This document shows positions 2,888 through 39,572 of a DNA stretch of 64,000 nucleotides, in pieces. How positions within the stretch are numbered: the stretch's first letter is position 1; the number at the start of each line of letters is the position of its first letter. The position numbers and the translations under genes were made by a program. Below the pieces are notes generated by a model that saw only the letters and a list, made by a program, of their open reading frames with translations, was not told where the DNA came from and made no database searches. The DNA lies in the NCBI RefSeq assembly GCF_055900595.2, contig NZ_CM148325.1. One strand, written 5' to 3'.

Positions 2888-3460
2888 GTGAATAATAACC
2901 TGCAAGGAGACGCTATCGCAGCTGCGATAGATGTCCTCAATGAAGAACGTGTCATCGCCTATCCCACGGAAGCCGTTTTCGGTGTCGGGTGCGATCCTGA
3001 TAGCGAAACAGCAGTGATGAGACTGTTGGAACTAAAACAGCGTCCGGTTGATAAGGGGCTGATTTTAATCGCGGCAAATTACGAGCAGCTTAAACCCTAT
3101 ATTGATGACTGCATGCTGACTGATGCGCAGCGTGAAACCATTTTTTCTCGCTGGCCAGGTCCCGTCACCTTTGTCTTTCCCGCGCCTGCGACAACACCGC
3201 GCTGGTTGACAGGCCGCTTTGATTCGCTTGCTGTACGAGTCACCGACCATCCGTTGGTGGTTGCTTTGTGCCAGGCTTATGGTAAACCGCTGGTTTCTAC
3301 CAGTGCCAACTTGAGTGGATTGCCGCCTTGTCGAACAGTAGACGAAGTTCGCGCACAATTTGGCGCAGCGTTTCCGGTTGTGCCTGGTGAAACGGGAGGG
3401 CGTTTAAATCCTTCAGAAATCCGCGATGCCCTGACGGGTGAACTGTTTCGACAGGGGTAA
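2888..3460 (+). CDS. tsaC: threonylcarbamoyl-AMP synthase TsaC (YrdC)
   Basis: GTG start at 2888 gives a 190-aa protein beginning [14 protein letters not shown], matching K-12 TsaC by recall; the track ORF extends upstream from an alternative start. Confidence 0.85.
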
Positions 3461-3464
3461 CATA

Positions 3465-4283
3465 ATGGAAAACTATGCTGTTTTTGGTAATCCAATAGCC
3501 CACAGCAAATCGCCATTCATTCATCAGCAATTTGCTCAGCAATTGAATATTGAACATCCCTATGGGCGCGTGCTGGCACCTATCAATGATTTCATTAACA
3601 CACTGAACGCTTTCTTTAGTGCTGGTGGTAAAGGAGCGAATGTGACGGTGCCTTTTAAAGAAGAGGCCTTTGCCAGAGCTGATGAACTTACTGAACGGGC
3701 AGCGTTGGCTGGTGCTGTTAATACCCTCAAGCGGTTAGAAGATGGACGCCTGCTGGGTGACAATACCGATGGCGTAGGCTTGTTAAGCGATCTGGAACGT
3801 CTGTCTTTTATCCGCCCAGGTTTACGTATTCTACTCATCGGCGCTGGTGGGGCGTCTCGTGGTGTATTACTTCCACTCCTTTCTCTGGACTGCGCGGTGA
3901 CAATCACTAATCGGACGGTATCCCGCGCGGAAGAGTTGGCTAAATTGTTTGCGCACACGGGCAGTATTCAGGCGTTGGGTATGGACGAACTGGAGGGGCA
4001 TGAGTTCGATCTCATTATTAATGCAACATCCAGTGGCATCAGTGGTGATATTCCCGCGATCCCGGCATCGCTCATTCATTCAGGCATGTGTTGCTATGAC
4101 ATGTTCTATCAGAAAGGAAAAACACCTTTTCTGGCATGGTGTGAGCTGCGAGGTTCAAAGCGTAATGCGGATGGATTGGGGATGCTGGTGGCACAGGCGG
4201 CTCATGCCTTTCTTCTCTGGCACGGTGTTCTGCCTGACATAGAACCAGTTATAAAGCAATTGCAGGAGGAGTTGTCCGCGTGA
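3465..4283 (+). CDS. aroE: shikimate dehydrogenase
   Basis: ATG at 3465 gives a 272-aa protein ([20 protein letters not shown]...), with the NTDGVG motif and GAGGASRG Rossmann loop. Confidence 0.95.
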
Positions 4284-33660: not shown

Positions 33661-34623
33661 ATGAGTAAGGTCTTCACAATTGGAGAAATTCTGGTTGAAA
33701 TTATGGCGAGTAAAATCGGCCAGCCATTTGATCAACCAGGTATCTGGAACGGCCCTTATCCCAGTGGTGCGCCCGCTATTTTTATCGACCAGGTGACACG
33801 TCTTGGTGTTCCGTGCGGCATCATTAGCTGTGTGGGGAATGATGGCTTTGGTGATATTAATATACATCGTCTGGCTGCTGATGGTGTGGATATCAGGGGG
33901 ATTTCAGTCTTACCTCTGGAAGCCACCGGGAGTGCCTTTGTTACTTATCATAACTCTGGCGATCGCGATTTTATTTTTAATATCAAGAATGCCGCTTGCG
34001 GTAAATTATCGGCGCAGCATGTTGATGAAAATATACTGAAAGACTGTACCCATTTTCATATTATGGGCTCATCCCTGTTTTCATTTCATATGGTAGACGC
34101 AGTAAAAAAAGCAGTAACCATCGTTAAAGCAAATGGTGGCGTTATTTCTTTCGACCCGAATATTCGTAAAGAGATGCTCGATATTCCAGAAATGCGTGAC
34201 GCCCTCCACTTTGTTCTTGAGTTAACAGATATCTATATGCCCAGCGAGGGAGAAGTGTTGCTCTTGTCGCCACACTCGACACCGGAGCGTGCAATCGCTG
34301 GTTTTCTTGAAGAAGGTGTTAAAGAGGTGATTGTGAAGCGCGGCAATCAAGGTGCCAGTTACTACTCCGCGAATGAGCAGTTTCATGTTGAGAGCTATCC
34401 GGTGGAAGAAGTTGACCCGACCGGTGCGGGAGACTGCTTTGGTGGCGCGTGGATTGCCTGCCGCCAGCTAGGGTTTGACGCCCATCGGGCATTACAATAT
34501 GCCAACGCCTGCGGTGCACTGGCGGTAACCCGACGTGGCCCAATGGAGGGAACGTCTCGCCTTGCGGAAATCGAAGCGTTCATCCAGCGCCATGACATGT
34601 CCATTCGGGAAGCAGCACAATGA
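33661..34623 (+). CDS. PfkB-family carbohydrate kinase (island kinase B)
   Basis: 320 aa; DPTGAGDCFG signature; shares long identical stretches with kinase A (PYPSGAPAIF, GSSLFSF, SFDPNIRKEML, ALQYANA, GPMEG). Confidence 0.9.
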   Translation: MSKVFTIGEILVEIMASKIGQPFDQPGIWNGPYPSGAPAIFIDQVTRLGVPCGIISCVGNDGFGDINIHRLAADGVDIRGISVLPLEATGSAFVTYHNSGDRDFIFNIKNAACGKLSAQHVDENILKDCTHFHIMGSSLFSFHMVDAVKKAVTIVKANGGVISFDPNIRKEMLDIPEMRDALHFVLELTDIYMPSEGEVLLLSPHSTPERAIAGFLEEGVKEVIVKRGNQGASYYSANEQFHVESYPVEEVDPTGAGDCFGGAWIACRQLGFDAHRALQYANACGALAVTRRGPMEGTSRLAEIEAFIQRHDMSIREAAQ

Positions 34624-35666
34624 AAAACGAAATTTGGTCGTGGATTGGCGATCTCTCGCAGGTTGCCGGAATTAAACACTATGAGTTACGCAGTGGCAGA
34701 TCAAAGGGGACAGAAGCGTTTGATGTCCGTACTGGTGCGGGATTGGCATTTACGGTGGTAAAAGATCGCGCGCTGGATATTGCATGGGCCAGCTACAAGG
34801 ACACTGCGCTCTCTTTTATCACCCCCAACGGCATTGTCGCCCCCGCTTTTTTTGAGTCTCAGGGCAACGGGTTTTTACGTAGCTTCTACGCGGGGTTACT
34901 GACTACCTGCGGACTTAGCTACATTGGCACGCCCTGTGAGGATAACGGAGAAACGCTGGGGTTACACGGGCGTTTGGCTGCGACTCCAGCAGAAGAGGTG
35001 GGGTATCGCACAGAACGGACCGACGACGGCATTGAATTTGTCATCAATGGCAAAGTACGGGAAACACGATTGTTCGGTGAAAATCTGACGCTGGAAAGGA
35101 CCATTCGCTGCCGTTATGGCGAAAATGTGCTGCGCATTGAAGACAAGGTGACTAATCATGGTTTCACCCGCCAGCCGCTGCAAATTCTTTATCACTTTAA
35201 TTACGGCTGGCCTTTATTATCGCCACAGGCAGAAATCTTGCTGTCGGCTAAAAGCGTAACGCCACGAACCCCGCATGCGGCGGAAGGGTTAACCAGTCAT
35301 CTGGAGATTTGTACCCCACAGCCCAGTTTTGACGAGCAGGTTTACTATCTCACGTTGAATAGCGACAGTCAGGGGATGAGTAAAGTTGCGCTGGTGAACG
35401 CCGAACTGGGGTGGGGAATTTACGAGAAATTCGACACCATGCAGCTACCCAACTTTATCCAGTGGAAAAATTTAGGCGCGGGTGAATATGTTATGGGGCT
35501 GGAGGTCAGCAATAGTTTTCCTGACGGTCGTGATAAAGAACGAGCGCAGGGGCGTCTGCCCTTTATAGAGCCAGGGGAAACAAAGACATACTGCTTTGAG
35601 CTGGGAATTGTTGATGGCGATGCTGAAATTAGCGCGTTGAAAGCGGAAATTGCAAGCTACCGTTAG
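34620..35666 (+). CDS. conserved protein of unknown function; possibly an aldose-epimerase-like fold (DUF4432-type), not verified
   Basis: 348-aa ORF whose ATG overlaps the kinase B stop (ATGA); no recognisable catalytic motif by eye; the family assignment is a guess from memory. Confidence 0.6.
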   Translation: MKNEIWSWIGDLSQVAGIKHYELRSGRSKGTEAFDVRTGAGLAFTVVKDRALDIAWASYKDTALSFITPNGIVAPAFFESQGNGFLRSFYAGLLTTCGLSYIGTPCEDNGETLGLHGRLAATPAEEVGYRTERTDDGIEFVINGKVRETRLFGENLTLERTIRCRYGENVLRIEDKVTNHGFTRQPLQILYHFNYGWPLLSPQAEILLSAKSVTPRTPHAAEGLTSHLEICTPQPSFDEQVYYLTLNSDSQGMSKVALVNAELGWGIYEKFDTMQLPNFIQWKNLGAGEYVMGLEVSNSFPDGRDKERAQGRLPFIEPGETKTYCFELGIVDGDAEISALKAEIASYR

Positions 35667-35757: not shown

Positions 35758-37107
35758 TTATTTTTCCTGAAGACCGAGTTTTTTCTCCAGATAGTGGATG
35801 TTAGTGCCACCATGCTGGAAGTTCTCGTCATTCATGATGCGGATCTGCAGATCAACGTTGGTTTTGATACCGTCGATGATCAGCTCCTGCAGCGCATTCT
35901 TCATGCGGGCAATCGCCACGTCACGGTTTTCACCGTAGCAAATCAGCTTACCGATCATTGAGTCATAGTACGGCGGTACGGTGTAGCCCGCGTAGATATG
36001 AGACTCCCAACGCACGCCAAAACCGCCAGGTGCATGGAAACGGGTGATTTTGCCCGGGCTTGGCAGGAAGGTGTTAGGATCCTCGGCGTTAATACGGCAT
36101 TCCACCGCATGGCCGCGAACGTGAACTTCTTCTTGCTTGATCGACAGCGGCTGACCAGCAGCAATACGCAGTTGTTCTTTGATCAGGTCAACACCGGTGA
36201 TCATTTCAGTAACCGGGTGTTCTACCTGAATACGGGTGTTCATTTCGATGAAATAGAACTCGCCGTTTTCGAACAGAAACTCGAAAGTACCTGCACCGCG
36301 ATAGCCGATATCAACACACGCTTTAGCACAACGTTCACCGATGTAGCGACGCAGTTCCGGGGTAATGCCCGGTGCTGGCGCTTCTTCGACCACTTTCTGG
36401 TGACGACGCTGCATAGAGCAGTCACGTTCCGCCAGATAGATAGCGTTGCCCTGACCGTCCGCCAGTACCTGGATCTCGACGTGGCGAGGATTTTCCAGGT
36501 ATTTCTCCATGTAAACCATGTCGTTATTGAAAGCGGCTTTCGCTTCCGCACGGGTCATGGAGATGGATTGCGCCAGTTCAGCGTCGCCGCGTACTACACG
36601 CATACCACGACCGCCGCCGCCGCCGGAGGCTTTGATAATCACCGGGTAACCAATGCGTTTTGCAATGGCGCGGTTTTTATCCATATCGTCGCCCAGCGGG
36701 CCGTCAGAACCTGGTACGCAAGGAACGCCCGCTTTTTTCATCGCCGCGATTGCTGATACTTTATCGCCCATCAGGCGAATGGTTTCGGCTTTCGGGCCGA
36801 TGAAGATAAAGCCGGAGCGTTCAACCTGCTCGGCAAAATTGGCGTTCTCGGAGAGGAAGCCGTAACCCGGATGGATTGCTACTGCGCCGGTGATTTCAGC
36901 GGCGCTGATGATTGCCGGGATGTTCAGATAACTTTTTACTGACGGAGCAGGGCCGATACAGACCGTTTCGTCTGCCAGTAATACGTGTTTTAGATCGCGA
37001 TCCGCACTGGAGTGCACAGCGACAGTCTTGATGCCCAGTTCTTTACAGGCACGAAGAATACGCAATGCAATCTCGCCGCGGTTGGCAATAACAATTTTAT
37101 CCAGCAT
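35758..37107 (-). CDS. accC: biotin carboxylase subunit of acetyl-CoA carboxylase
   Basis: 449 aa from [33 protein letters not shown]; the track ORF carries a 13-codon upstream extension. Confidence 0.97.
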
Positions 37108-37117
37108 GTTCGCCTCG

Positions 37118-37588
37118 TTACTCGATGACGACCAGCGGCTCGTCAAATTCTACCGGTTGTCCACTTTCGACCAGAATTGCTTTCACGGTACCGGATTTGT
37201 CCGCTTCGATCTGGTTCATCATTTTCATGGCTTCAACGATGCACAGGGTATCGCCCACGTTGACTTTCTGACCCACTTCGATGAACGCTTTTGCGTCCGG
37301 GCTTGGGGTGCGGTAGAAAGTACCAACCATCGGGGAACGTACGATGTGACCACTGATTTCCGCTGCTGCTGGCGCTTCCATGGAAGGAACGGTCGCCGGA
37401 GCGGCTGCGTTAGATTGAGCTGGCTGCTGCATCATTGGTGCAGCGTAAGCTTGTTGCATCACAGGGAAACTTGCGGCAGGAGCTGCACGGCTGATGCGTA
37501 CTGACTCTTCGCCTTCGGAGATTTCCAGTTCGGAGATGCCTGATTCTTCAACCAGCTCGATCAGTTTTTTAATCTTACGAATATCCAT
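37118..37588 (-). CDS. accB: biotin carboxyl carrier protein
   Basis: 156 aa; Ala/Pro-rich linker and biotinylation motif EAMKM. Confidence 0.97.
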
Positions 37589-38597
37589 GAGTGGGTTCCG
37601 TACTCTTTGTTTAGTGTGATTGTGACAGGCGTTTCACCGCCGTCTGTAAAGCGTATGCCCCGACAGCTGTATGCATAGCGATAAATTCCAGCAGGCCGGG
37701 ACGCCGGTCTATTTTGCCCCAGAGTGTCAATGTTTAGACTTGACGGACATTGTGCAGCGATCTGCTGCTATCCTCCGGCAAAAAACAAAATATACCTTCG
37801 TTGCGCCAATGTCACCTTTTCCGCAGCGCAAAAACTGCGTCAGGGAGGACGAGGTCGCACATTATAACGATTTCGTAGCAATTGGCAGCTAAATACTGGT
37901 CTTATCAGGGAAGATAATCAACAGCTAACATGTAAATAACCTTCAACACCGTGTAATTTGCAACAAGCCGCACAATTCACGAAATTAGCGCTATCGTCGA
38001 CGGAACTTCTTATAACGTAAGGCTAAAAGCTGTAAAGCCAGCTCTGCGAAGATGAGGGGCTGCAATGAGATGATCCTCACAGACCACAAATAATGTAGGG
38101 TTGCCAGGATCGCGACAAGATAGACGACATTACGCAGCGGTTGCTGGGGATTACTCAATTTTCACGGCATCGTCCGGATAGACGTCAATGCTAAAGCACG
38201 CAAAATCAACAAACTGACAATGCTCAGCATCAAATAGTTTTGAGTGGTTAATTTATAATCTAATAAAATCAGATTATTCACCCCTGGGATCAGAGTTAAG
38301 GTACAGATTAAGCGTAGCGTCACCCAGGCAAAGCGCCTTAAACCTAACAGACGACGGGACGTATCAATAATGACTATTTAGTGGAGTATCAAGGGTGTTT
38401 TCCACCGTTTGGTGACCCGTATCAATGCGCATCAATTTATGGTCAGTCGAAATCATGACTTTCCAGTTTGGATTATGTTGTACAACTTTCTGACCAAGGT
38501 GTTCGACGAAAGCTGTCCGGCTAACCGCTTTTCCCGTTAATCGATGGAATAATGATTTCAAAATGAGTTCCCTCTCTTATTAATCCTTGCTAAATGG

Positions 38598-39572
38598 TTA
38601 ATTAATCTTCACCAGCGTGCGACCCTGGATCTGGTTATTAATGATGGCTTCGGCAAACTTTGGTGCTTCTGCCAGAGATATCTCTTTTGCTGCCTGGGTA
38701 TAGAATGATTCCGGTAAATCGGCGACCAGTCGCTGCCAGGCTTGTGCGCGGCGTGCTGGTGGCGTCATCACTGAATCCACCCCTTGTAAACGGACATTAC
38801 GCAGAATAAATGGCATGACCGTTGTTGGCAGAGTAAAACCACCCGCCAGACCACAAGCTGCCACGCAGCCTCCGTAATTCATTTGCGCCAGCACTTTCGC
38901 CAGCACTTTGTCGCCAACGGTGTCAATTGCCCCAGCCCAGAGTTGTTTTTCCAGAGGACGGGATTCGGCAAACTCATCGCGAGGGAGAATACGGCTGGCA
39001 CCTAAACTTTTCAGATATTCATGGGTACTTTCGCGACCGGAAACGGCAACGACCTGATAACCCAACTTATGCAGCAGCGCCACGGCGGTACTGCCGACGC
39101 CACCACTGGCACCCGTTACGACAATCTCGCCGTCCTGCGGGCGAACACCGGCATCTTCCAGCGCCATCACACACAGCATGGCGGTAAAACCGGCAGTACC
39201 GATAATCATTGCTTTACGCGCGTCCAGCCCTTGCGGCATGGCAACCAGCCAGTCACCTTTCACTCGCGCCTGCTCCGCCAGCCCACCCCAGTGGTTTTCA
39301 CCAACGCCCCAGCCAGTGAGTAATACGTCCTGACCGGCATGAAAACGCGGATCTTCGCTGGTGCGTACAGTTCCGGCAAAATCGATCCCAGGAATCATCG
39401 GAAAATTACGGATGATTTTTCCCTTACCGGTAATTGCCAGCGCATCTTTGTAGTTCAGGCTCGACCAGTGAACATCAACCGTGACATCGCCCTCCGGCAG
39501 GCGACTTTCGTCCAGAGTCTGTACCGATGCGAGAGTTTTGCCGTCCTGCTGTTCTAAAAGTAACGCCTGCAT
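38598..39572 (-). CDS. acuI: acrylyl-CoA reductase AcuI (YhdH), MDR-family NADPH-dependent oxidoreductase
   Basis: 324 aa; nucleotide-binding motif TGASGGVG. Confidence 0.9.
   Translation of the reverse strand: MQALLLEQQDGKTLASVQTLDESRLPEGDVTVDVHWSSLNYKDALAITGKGKIIRNFPMIPGIDFAGTVRTSEDPRFHAGQDVLLTGWGVGENHWGGLAEQARVKGDWLVAMPQGLDARKAMIIGTAGFTAMLCVMALEDAGVRPQDGEIVVTGASGGVGSTAVALLHKLGYQVVAVSGRESTHEYLKSLGASRILPRDEFAESRPLEKQLWAGAIDTVGDKVLAKVLAQMNYGGCVAACGLAGGFTLPTTVMPFILRNVRLQGVDSVMTPPARRAQAWQRLVADLPESFYTQAAKEISLAEAPKFAEAIINNQIQGRTLVKIN

Follow-up and report, generated by a model that had tools for sequence, protein, structure and literature searches.

The 1009-bp gap between acuI and accB most probably consists of decayed genes around a working accBC promoter, and the long leader of accBC appears to derive from a collapsed aroQ gene; we put the probability of this reading at about 85%. 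Throughout, the window is the whole stretch of 64,000 nucleotides that was analysed. The sequence and the list of its open reading frames (ORFs) place acuI at 38598..39572 and accB at 37118..37588, both on the minus strand and with accC after accB, and the gap spans 37589..38597.

The gap as a constant feature of E. coli

The gap holds no intact gene. The first-pass annotation, made from the sequence alone, had described about 1 kb without a convincing gene at this place, and the description holds in this sense: the longest ORF in the 1009 bp has at most 73 codons. The further statement that the short ORFs use non-ATG starts and lack Shine-Dalgarno sequences is true in part. The 65-codon ORF at 38364..38561 (minus strand) does start with TTG and is preceded by GAGAGGG, 8 nt before the start codon, and an ORF on the plus strand (37671..37892) starts with ATG. 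For the remaining short ORFs of the gap, on both strands, we found neither a credible family match nor conservation.

At least 80% of the gap could be matched in 5420 of 5426 complete E. coli genomes, showing that it is a constant feature of the species. The corresponding gap of an MG1655 derivative measures 977 bp and carries no RefSeq features. The gap of the window is 99% identical to that of strain N96, 95–99% identical to that of 796 genomes and 90–95% identical to that of 4628 other E. coli genomes; the window represents a divergent lineage of Escherichia. Pseudogene sequence can be recognised in about 60% of the gap. The view that most of it is unassigned could thus not be upheld, since the distal ~600 bp can be traced to a DUF1444-like gene and to msrQ, and the leader appears to be a collapsed aroQ (Table 1).

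Table 1 Features assigned between acuI and accB, ordered from acuI to accB (positions in the window)
Feature	Position	Strand	Description and basis
Spacer after the acuI stop, 36 nt	38562..38597	minus	Carries the GAGAGGG Shine-Dalgarno sequence of the truncated DUF1444-like ORF; read from the sequence
65-codon TTG ORF, equivalent of K-12 yrdF'	38364..38561	minus	Alignment with the intact allele L003
msrQ relic, equivalent of K-12 yrdE	37991..38377	minus	One frame, 128 residues, corresponding to MsrQ residues ~76–195
Spacer from the msrQ stop to the promoter block	37911..37990	minus	Collinear with the msrQ-downstream spacer of other genera; partly conserved
FadR-operator-like box CCCTGATAAGACCAGTA	37894..37910	minus	~47 bp upstream of the predicted P1 start; near-invariant in ~55 loci
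Candidate promoter P1	37861..37888	minus	-35 CTGCCA 37888..37883, 16-nt spacer, -10 TATAAT 37866..37861; scan 10/12
Former aroQ 5'UTR, 5' part of the putative accBC leader	37751..37855	minus	In register with the msrQ–aroQ spacer of genera that keep aroQ
Candidate promoter P2	37787..37815	minus	-35 GTGACA 37815..37810, 17-nt spacer, -10 TATTTT 37792..37787; scan 9/12
Collapsed aroQ (type II 3-dehydroquinase) relic	37611..37750	minus	140 bp instead of 453; homology at both ends
aroQ–accB intercistronic spacer, 22 nt	37589..37610	minus	accB ribosome-binding region AAGAGTACGGAACCCACTC

Ancestral gene order in Enterobacterales

We scanned one genome per species for AccB and analysed the resulting 80 loci, from Enterobacterales and other Gammaproteobacteria, by tblastn and ORF calling. 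Nearly all Enterobacterales have the order acuI – msrP – msrQ – ~235 bp – aroQ (150 aa) – 22 bp – accB – accC; in tblastn searches of the 80 genomes, acuI, then ~1.3 kb, msrQ and accB were found in nearly all those of Enterobacterales. The intervening ORFs encode MsrP (Oxidored_molyb), MsrQ (Ferric_reduct) and AroQ (DHquinase_II). In most of the 80 loci, including those of Vibrio, Aeromonas and Pasteurellaceae, aroQ lies directly upstream of accB, and an intact aroQ is missing in Escherichia, Citrobacter, Superficieibacter and Phytobacter.

In other genera msrP stands immediately upstream of msrQ, whereas the msrQ relic of the window has no adjacent msrP; tblastn with MsrP detected no msrP remnant in the gap. 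Since the stop codon of the relic and the DNA following it are collinear with those of other genera, the relic marks the ancestral site. The working msrPQ of K-12 adjoins hiuH/hprRS, and its MsrQ shares 81–84% identity with the MsrQ that Citrobacter and Enterobacter have in the syntenic position. This synteny and identity suggest that the working msrPQ by hiuH is the copy that was relocated, the original having decayed in place.

Relics of msrQ and of a DUF1444-like gene beside acuI

The msrQ relic lacks the N-terminal 75 codons, has an in-frame TGA at 38162..38164 and ends with a stop at 37991..37993; it is not a complete uninterrupted coding sequence of ~199–211 aa. The NCBIfam profile NF003831 (MsrQ) matched it over profile positions 76–195 of 212 (E=2.5e-21, 76 bits). 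This falls short of the 130-bit full-length cut-off since only a fragment is left, and Pfam Ferric_reduct (PF01794) was not detected on this fragment. Intact MsrQ proteins share 57–61% identity with the relic. When it is aligned with MsrQ of K-12, ATLHL is paired with VTLRL and QQLHNF with QPLRNV, so that two conserved histidines are replaced by arginine, and of the conserved MsrQ histidines, which we take to be the heme ligands, only that of IHYLW is kept. In other strains RefSeq calls the same sequence a "cytochrome b family / YedZ / MsrQ" pseudogene. We conclude that the msrQ relic is a pseudogene and not a functional member of the MsrQ family.

Between this relic and acuI lies the fragment of a second gene. 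The 65-codon ORF begins with the N-terminal 58 codons of a DUF1444-like gene for 276 aa; seven out-of-context codons and a stop come next, with the deletion junction at about 38388/38387. All 58 of 58 residues of the fragment were aligned by tblastn in the near-identical strain N96, and the spacer that precedes the ORF also stands before the intact 276-aa gene in L003. The body of the DUF1444-like gene is found in 669 of 5426 E. coli genomes and is intact in E. albertii (L005). In a minority of strains, where the gap measures 1732 bp, RefSeq has an intact "DUF1444 domain-containing" gene of 831 bp; in others, N96 among them, it has a "hypothetical protein" ORF directly after acuI. The family assignment of the intact 276-aa homologue is below threshold in both databases: its alignment with DUF1444 (PF07285) in Pfam spans nearly the whole profile at 17.1 bits (cut-off 23.8), and its match to the PRK13668 family in NCBIfam scores 22.6 bits (cut-off 221). 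No informative PDB match and no PADLOC match was obtained for the intact protein, and the 65-aa fragment alone had no Pfam match.

Both relics have counterparts in K-12, where yrdF' and yrdE have been described as pseudogenes between acuI and accB (J Bacteriol, PMC7648144). The likeness extends to position, order and content: the N-terminal part of one gene adjoins acuI, and a yedZ/msrQ-like pseudogene follows. The distal ~600 bp are therefore already annotated biology. The allele of the window is ~91% identical to that of K-12 in this part and differs from it in two respects. It keeps 33 bp that are absent from K-12, where they were lost in frame between two TTGATAC direct repeats, leaving an ORF of 54 codons instead of 65. 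In addition, the frame of its msrQ relic is continuous over residues 76–195, whereas the K-12 relic has frameshifts upstream of residue ~101.

Two types of allele occur in E. coli: in one, the DUF1444-like gene is intact and the msrQ relic is shorter; in the other, the gene is truncated and the msrQ relic is longer. One deletion each would suffice to produce them from an ancestral arrangement acuI – DUF1444-like gene – msrP – msrQ. In the intact-gene allele, ~17 N-terminal codons of msrP seem to be kept past the DUF1444 stop, a weak match with E=0.22.

The accBC leader and the remains of aroQ

The AroQ relic was identified from its two ends. It keeps the start codon (37750..37748), which is in register with the aroQ ATG of other genera in the cross-genus alignment and after which the aroQ frame is lost, as well as the last 15 codons (37658..37614) and the stop (37613..37611). 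Residues 136–150 of Enterobacter AroQ matched this tail in tblastn with 14 of 15 identities (E=1e-6), and with Enterobacter aroQ as the query every E. coli genome matched at nt 407–453 only. The middle ~70–80 nt of the relic have no significant homology to aroQ. In total ~313 bp of the gene are gone; the class II dehydroquinase domain (PF01220) is no longer encoded, and a Pfam search with the ORF of 39 aa ending in the AroQ tail gave no match. The dehydroquinase of E. coli is AroD, an unrelated type I enzyme.

The 69 nt before accB (37589..37657) are 94–98.5% identical to the corresponding sequence of genera with an intact aroQ (E=1e-21 to 1e-24). The last 22 nt of this block, the junction upstream of accB, line up with those of more than 50 loci in which aroQ persists, which places the relic at the position of AroQ, and the ribosome-binding motif of accB, GAGTACGGAA, is conserved throughout Enterobacterales. 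The window thus shares with the aroQ–accB–accC cluster of Gammaproteobacteria a collinear promoter block, 5'UTR, aroQ start, last 15 codons and 22-nt junction. The internal deletions of aroQ differ among Escherichia, Citrobacter, Superficieibacter and Phytobacter; therefore, aroQ decayed more than once, with both ends being kept.

From this collinearity, the accBC leader would be composed of the former aroQ 5'UTR, the 140-bp aroQ relic and the old intercistronic junction. A collapse of aroQ in place, behind a promoter that served aroQ-accBC, would also give a natural reason why the promoter is far from accB. In the literature on aroQ with accB in E. coli we found no mention of an aroQ origin of the long leader. 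This origin is apparently the sole undescribed point of our analysis, the remainder being known biology.

The promoter region and the FadR-like box

That the gap must contain the accBC promoter and leader had been proposed in the first-pass annotation, and the sequence agrees with it: in the 402 bp adjoining accB, a promoter block was near-invariant across ~50 genera. An anchor search and the cross-genus alignment showed that the block CTGATAAGACCAGTATTTAGCTGCC...TATAAT is conserved in ~55 loci. The block CTGATAAGACCAGTATTTAGCTGCCAATTGCTACGAAATCGTTATAATG, which contains the FadR-like box and P1, is invariant or nearly so in ~55 loci.

P1 combines a weak -35 hexamer with a perfect -10 hexamer; its predicted start at ~37855 would give a leader of ~266 nt. 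As Li and Cronan are said to have noted in 1993, the accBC promoter lies unusually far upstream of accB, and P1 matches this. Downstream of it, the alignment of 51 sequences has TGACA and TA(T)nTT columns that are invariant or at least 90% conserved, and the 17 nt between them vary. Conserved hexamers around a free spacer look like the signature of a second promoter, P2, and not of an RNA helix; transcription from P2 is predicted to start at ~37780, with a leader of ~191 nt. Both predicted promoters have sigma-70 hexamers at a spacing of 16–18 nt that are conserved in the orthologous regions. The supplements of Kim et al. 2012 have no start-site entry for accB, and the literature text gave no start coordinates for accBC. 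A terminator scan of the minus strand of the gap detected no terminators.

The loci in which the FadR-like box is near-invariant belong to Enterobacterales and some other Gammaproteobacteria. Its CTGATAAGACCAG differs at two positions from the core of the fadB operator (palindromic CTGGT-N3-ACCAG), and two such matches were found in the window, with 0.8 expected. Since the core match is not rarer than chance, it is the conservation of the box and the literature, rather than the match itself, that point to a FadR site; activation of accBC by FadR has been reported (PMC7041290; bioRxiv 10.64898/2026.06.26.734639). FadR would then probably bind at 37894..37910. The arrangement resembles the control of accBC known from the literature, where AccB autoregulation is described besides FadR activation, in having a promoter a few hundred bp upstream of accB and an adjoining FadR-type box. 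It differs in that the starts given here are predicted ones and in that P2, a second conserved promoter-like element, is proposed.

Divergence and constraint

The two parts of the gap diverge at very different rates (conservation across genomes was one of the checks suggested beforehand). Between the window and K-12, the 402 bp of promoter and leader have no substitutions and one 1-nt indel, whereas the relics differ by 9.1%; third codon positions differ by 7.1% in acuI, 9.3% in accC and 1.9% in accB. Compared with these genes, the distal relics appear to drift at a nearly neutral rate. Every one of the 5425 E. coli genomes with a match shares at least 99% identity with the window over the 402 bp; for the relic part, identity is 90–95% in 5410 genomes. 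Against E. albertii, the 402 bp have 20 mismatches and six gap positions (~6%), and third positions differ by 26.8% in acuI and 5.7% in accB. Nine of the 26 differences between E. coli and E. albertii in the 402 bp are located in the spacer that leads from the msrQ stop to the promoter block.

We do not ascribe the zero divergence of the leader to purifying selection alone. From ~37990 on, the divergence of the window from K-12 stays low not only across the leader but also throughout accB and ~300 bp into accC, and the third positions of accB change slowly as well (1.9%). Part of the leader's apparent constraint may thus come from recombination, from linkage to a highly expressed gene or from hitch-hiking with accB. 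That the promoter blocks and the 69-nt junction are conserved across genera is independent of the comparison between the window and K-12.

RNA elements and small proteins as alternatives

The long leader might instead be a structured cis-regulatory RNA, or give rise to a short attenuated transcript like Ysr190, that serves AccB autoregulation, growth-rate control or control by an sRNA. The mechanism of AccB autoregulation is unsettled in the literature (PMC11602165), overproduction of OmrA is reported to lower accBC mRNA, and the 402 bp are highly conserved within Escherichia, the interior of the aroQ relic included. Furthermore, the Rfam family Ysr190 (RF02764, Yersinia sRNA 190) occupies the homologous position in Yersinia and Serratia, where it reaches the gathering score in the msrQ–aroQ spacer, ~35–40 nt upstream of the aroQ ATG. 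The window has a weak match to it at 37787..37886, and the Rfam structure ends in a U-run for which the window has TATATTTTGTTTTTT at the equivalent place. Still, this match reaches 25.3 bits, where the gathering score is 66 (E=0.57). Beyond it, a permissive Rfam search returned only a noise match to ssnA, and no family reached its threshold. What the window and Ysr190 share is the position between msrQ and aroQ-accB, from the P1 promoter to the T-run; the structure is conserved nowhere beyond Yersinia and Serratia. The Ysr190 model includes the -10 box of P1, so its boundaries are imprecise, and because of this overlap we infer that Ysr190 itself is probably the 5' leader of the operon and not an independent sRNA gene. 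Its expression in Y. ruckeri, high in planktonic cells and lower early in biofilm formation (PMC12112432), would be compatible with a growth-linked leader. As for structure in the leader, RNAalifold found no conserved pair in 51 aligned leaders, the predicted fold of the E. coli leader does not surpass that of shuffled sequence (z = -1.18), and the conserved blocks resemble promoter hexamers with a variable spacer more than paired RNA. A riboswitch or attenuator was thus dropped as the main explanation, and we regard a structured or attenuated leader RNA as unlikely.

The same conservation of the relic interior could mean that the aroQ relic is under selection and that the whole leader of ~270 nt, interior included, is a cis-element for AccB feedback or for growth-rate or OmrA control, acting as RNA or through a leader ORF of 62 codons. 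No DNA-binding motif is known in AccB. The relic ATG of K-12 and E. albertii does open an ORF of 62 codons, which terminates 27 nt into accB, and in E. albertii its frame is preserved by two compensating indels. In the window, however, an extra A (AAA at 37735..37733 instead of AA) reduces this ORF to seven codons, in Citrobacter it has nine, and the Shine-Dalgarno-like GGAGGA is ~20 nt away from the ATG. We consider selection on the whole leader improbable. Less probable still is that the gap encodes a functional small protein, either from the relic aroQ ATG at 37750 or from the 65-codon ORF beside acuI. The latter has a start codon and a Shine-Dalgarno sequence, is annotated as a "hypothetical protein" in N96 and stays open in K-12 despite the 33-bp deletion, because that deletion is in frame. 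Against this, it is the head of a 276-aa gene within the segment of 9.1%, about neutral, divergence, it has no Pfam match, and we counted by eye ~5 non-synonymous and ~4 synonymous changes in the alignment. A junk peptide might be translated from this truncated ORF. The suggestion that the gap might hold a new small RNA or small protein thus found no computational support: Rfam matches were sub-threshold, the leader showed neither conserved pairing nor unusual folding, and the ORFs were unconserved.

Origin and meaning of the gap

We therefore favour gene decay around a working accBC promoter, with a leader made from aroQ. The ancestor would have had the order acuI – msrP – msrQ – promoter – aroQ – accB – accC. 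In the Escherichia lineage, a DUF1444-like gene would have been inserted after acuI, and msrP and the 5' part of msrQ deleted, with the working msrPQ situated elsewhere, by hiuH/hprRS. A further deletion in most E. coli, including the source of the window, would have left 58 codons of the DUF1444-like gene, and aroQ would have shrunk to its start codon, ~70–80 nt without assignable homology and its last 15 codons. Transcription of accBC is predicted to start at P1, ~266 nt before accB, aided by FadR just upstream, and possibly also at P2, ~191 nt before accB. The transcript would pass through the aroQ relic, and accB would be translated from the old aroQ–accB ribosome-binding site. On this model, the ancestral promoter region and the aroQ–accB junction are probably still functional, and the distal ~600 bp of relics are presumably inert.

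To summarize, the region can be set aside in the search for new genes or RNAs. For annotation, the three relics and the conserved control region now have exact limits, and the FadR-like box, P1, P2 and the 69-nt block make up a short list of elements for dissecting AccB autoregulation and FadR control.

The leader of accBC

The Rfam Ysr190 model, which matches Yersinia/Serratia loci, was compared with the two candidate promoters P1 and P2 in the gap between acuI and accB. The 5' start of the model lies within the P1 promoter, with the TATAAT box inside its 5' part, and its 3' end falls on a T-run at the position of the candidate P2 -10 box. Therefore, the Ysr190 'sRNA' is probably the aroQ-accBC 5' leader with imprecise ends.

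The only leader open reading frame (ORF) with any persistence across species starts at the ATG of the aroQ relic. In K-12 and E. albertii it has 62 codons and ends 27 nt into accB, and in E. albertii its frame is preserved by two compensating indels. In the window, one additional A (37733..37735, minus strand) shortens this ORF to 7 codons. We consider the 62-codon ORF to be probably a product of chance.

Coordinates of the features in the window and in the compared loci
Feature	Location	Strand	Remark
Working msrPQ, E. coli	L085 10256..11896		K-12 derivative, hiuH/hprRS locus
Rfam Ysr190 matches	L039 4380..4481; L041 4238..4339; L061 4380..4481; L026 4379..4480
62-codon ORF from relic aroQ ATG	L002 3317..3505 (K-12); L005 4840..5028 (E. 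albertii)
33 bp kept in the window, missing from K-12-type strains	window 38409..38441	-	comparison with L002
Motif TGTGCGG...(T)TGCAAA / TGTGCGGTTTGCCGCA	window 37945..37975	-	directly after the msrQ relic stop
Aldose 1-epimerase family gene, 348 aa	window 34620..35666	+	convergent to accC

Divergence around accBC

The divergence between the window and K-12 was uneven. It was close to zero in two tracts, one reaching from the promoter through accB and 300 bp into accC (36800..37990), the other at the 3' end of accC (35758..35999); the middle of accC showed 4-7 differences per 100 bp, and acuI 0-8 per 100 bp. This patchiness suggests mosaic recombination around accBC. Directly downstream of accC, the window and the near-identical E. 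coli strain N96 carry the aldose 1-epimerase family gene in convergent orientation, in the place occupied by yhdT-panF in a K-12 derivative, which suggests an insertion or replacement 3' of accC in the lineage of the window.

Decay of msrPQ and the DUF1444-like gene

The working msrPQ genes of E. coli lie away from the usual Enterobacterales site, which in most members is upstream of aroQ-accB. The identity of the msrQ relic at this ancestral site was 61-68% to the MsrQ of E. coli itself, slightly above the 54-63% for the Citrobacter protein. This fits a scenario in which msrPQ was duplicated in the Escherichia lineage and the original copy was then lost. The motif past the relic's stop is partially conserved between genera in a cross-genus alignment, and could be a former msrQ terminator stem or a putative binding site.

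In the DUF1444-like pseudogene, the 33 bp absent from K-12-type strains are flanked in the window by TTGATAC direct repeats; their loss is a repeat-mediated in-frame deletion. In L003, an E. coli locus with the intact DUF1444-like gene, about 17 apparent msrP N-terminal codons were found at ~3420..3475, 160 bp past the stop of this gene (KLTEADFATKSAFLLSRG versus FTEADVTAESAFFMQRR; a weak match, tblastn E=0.22). If this trace is real, insertion of the DUF1444-like gene, with acuI on one side and msrP on the other, preceded the decay of msrPQ.
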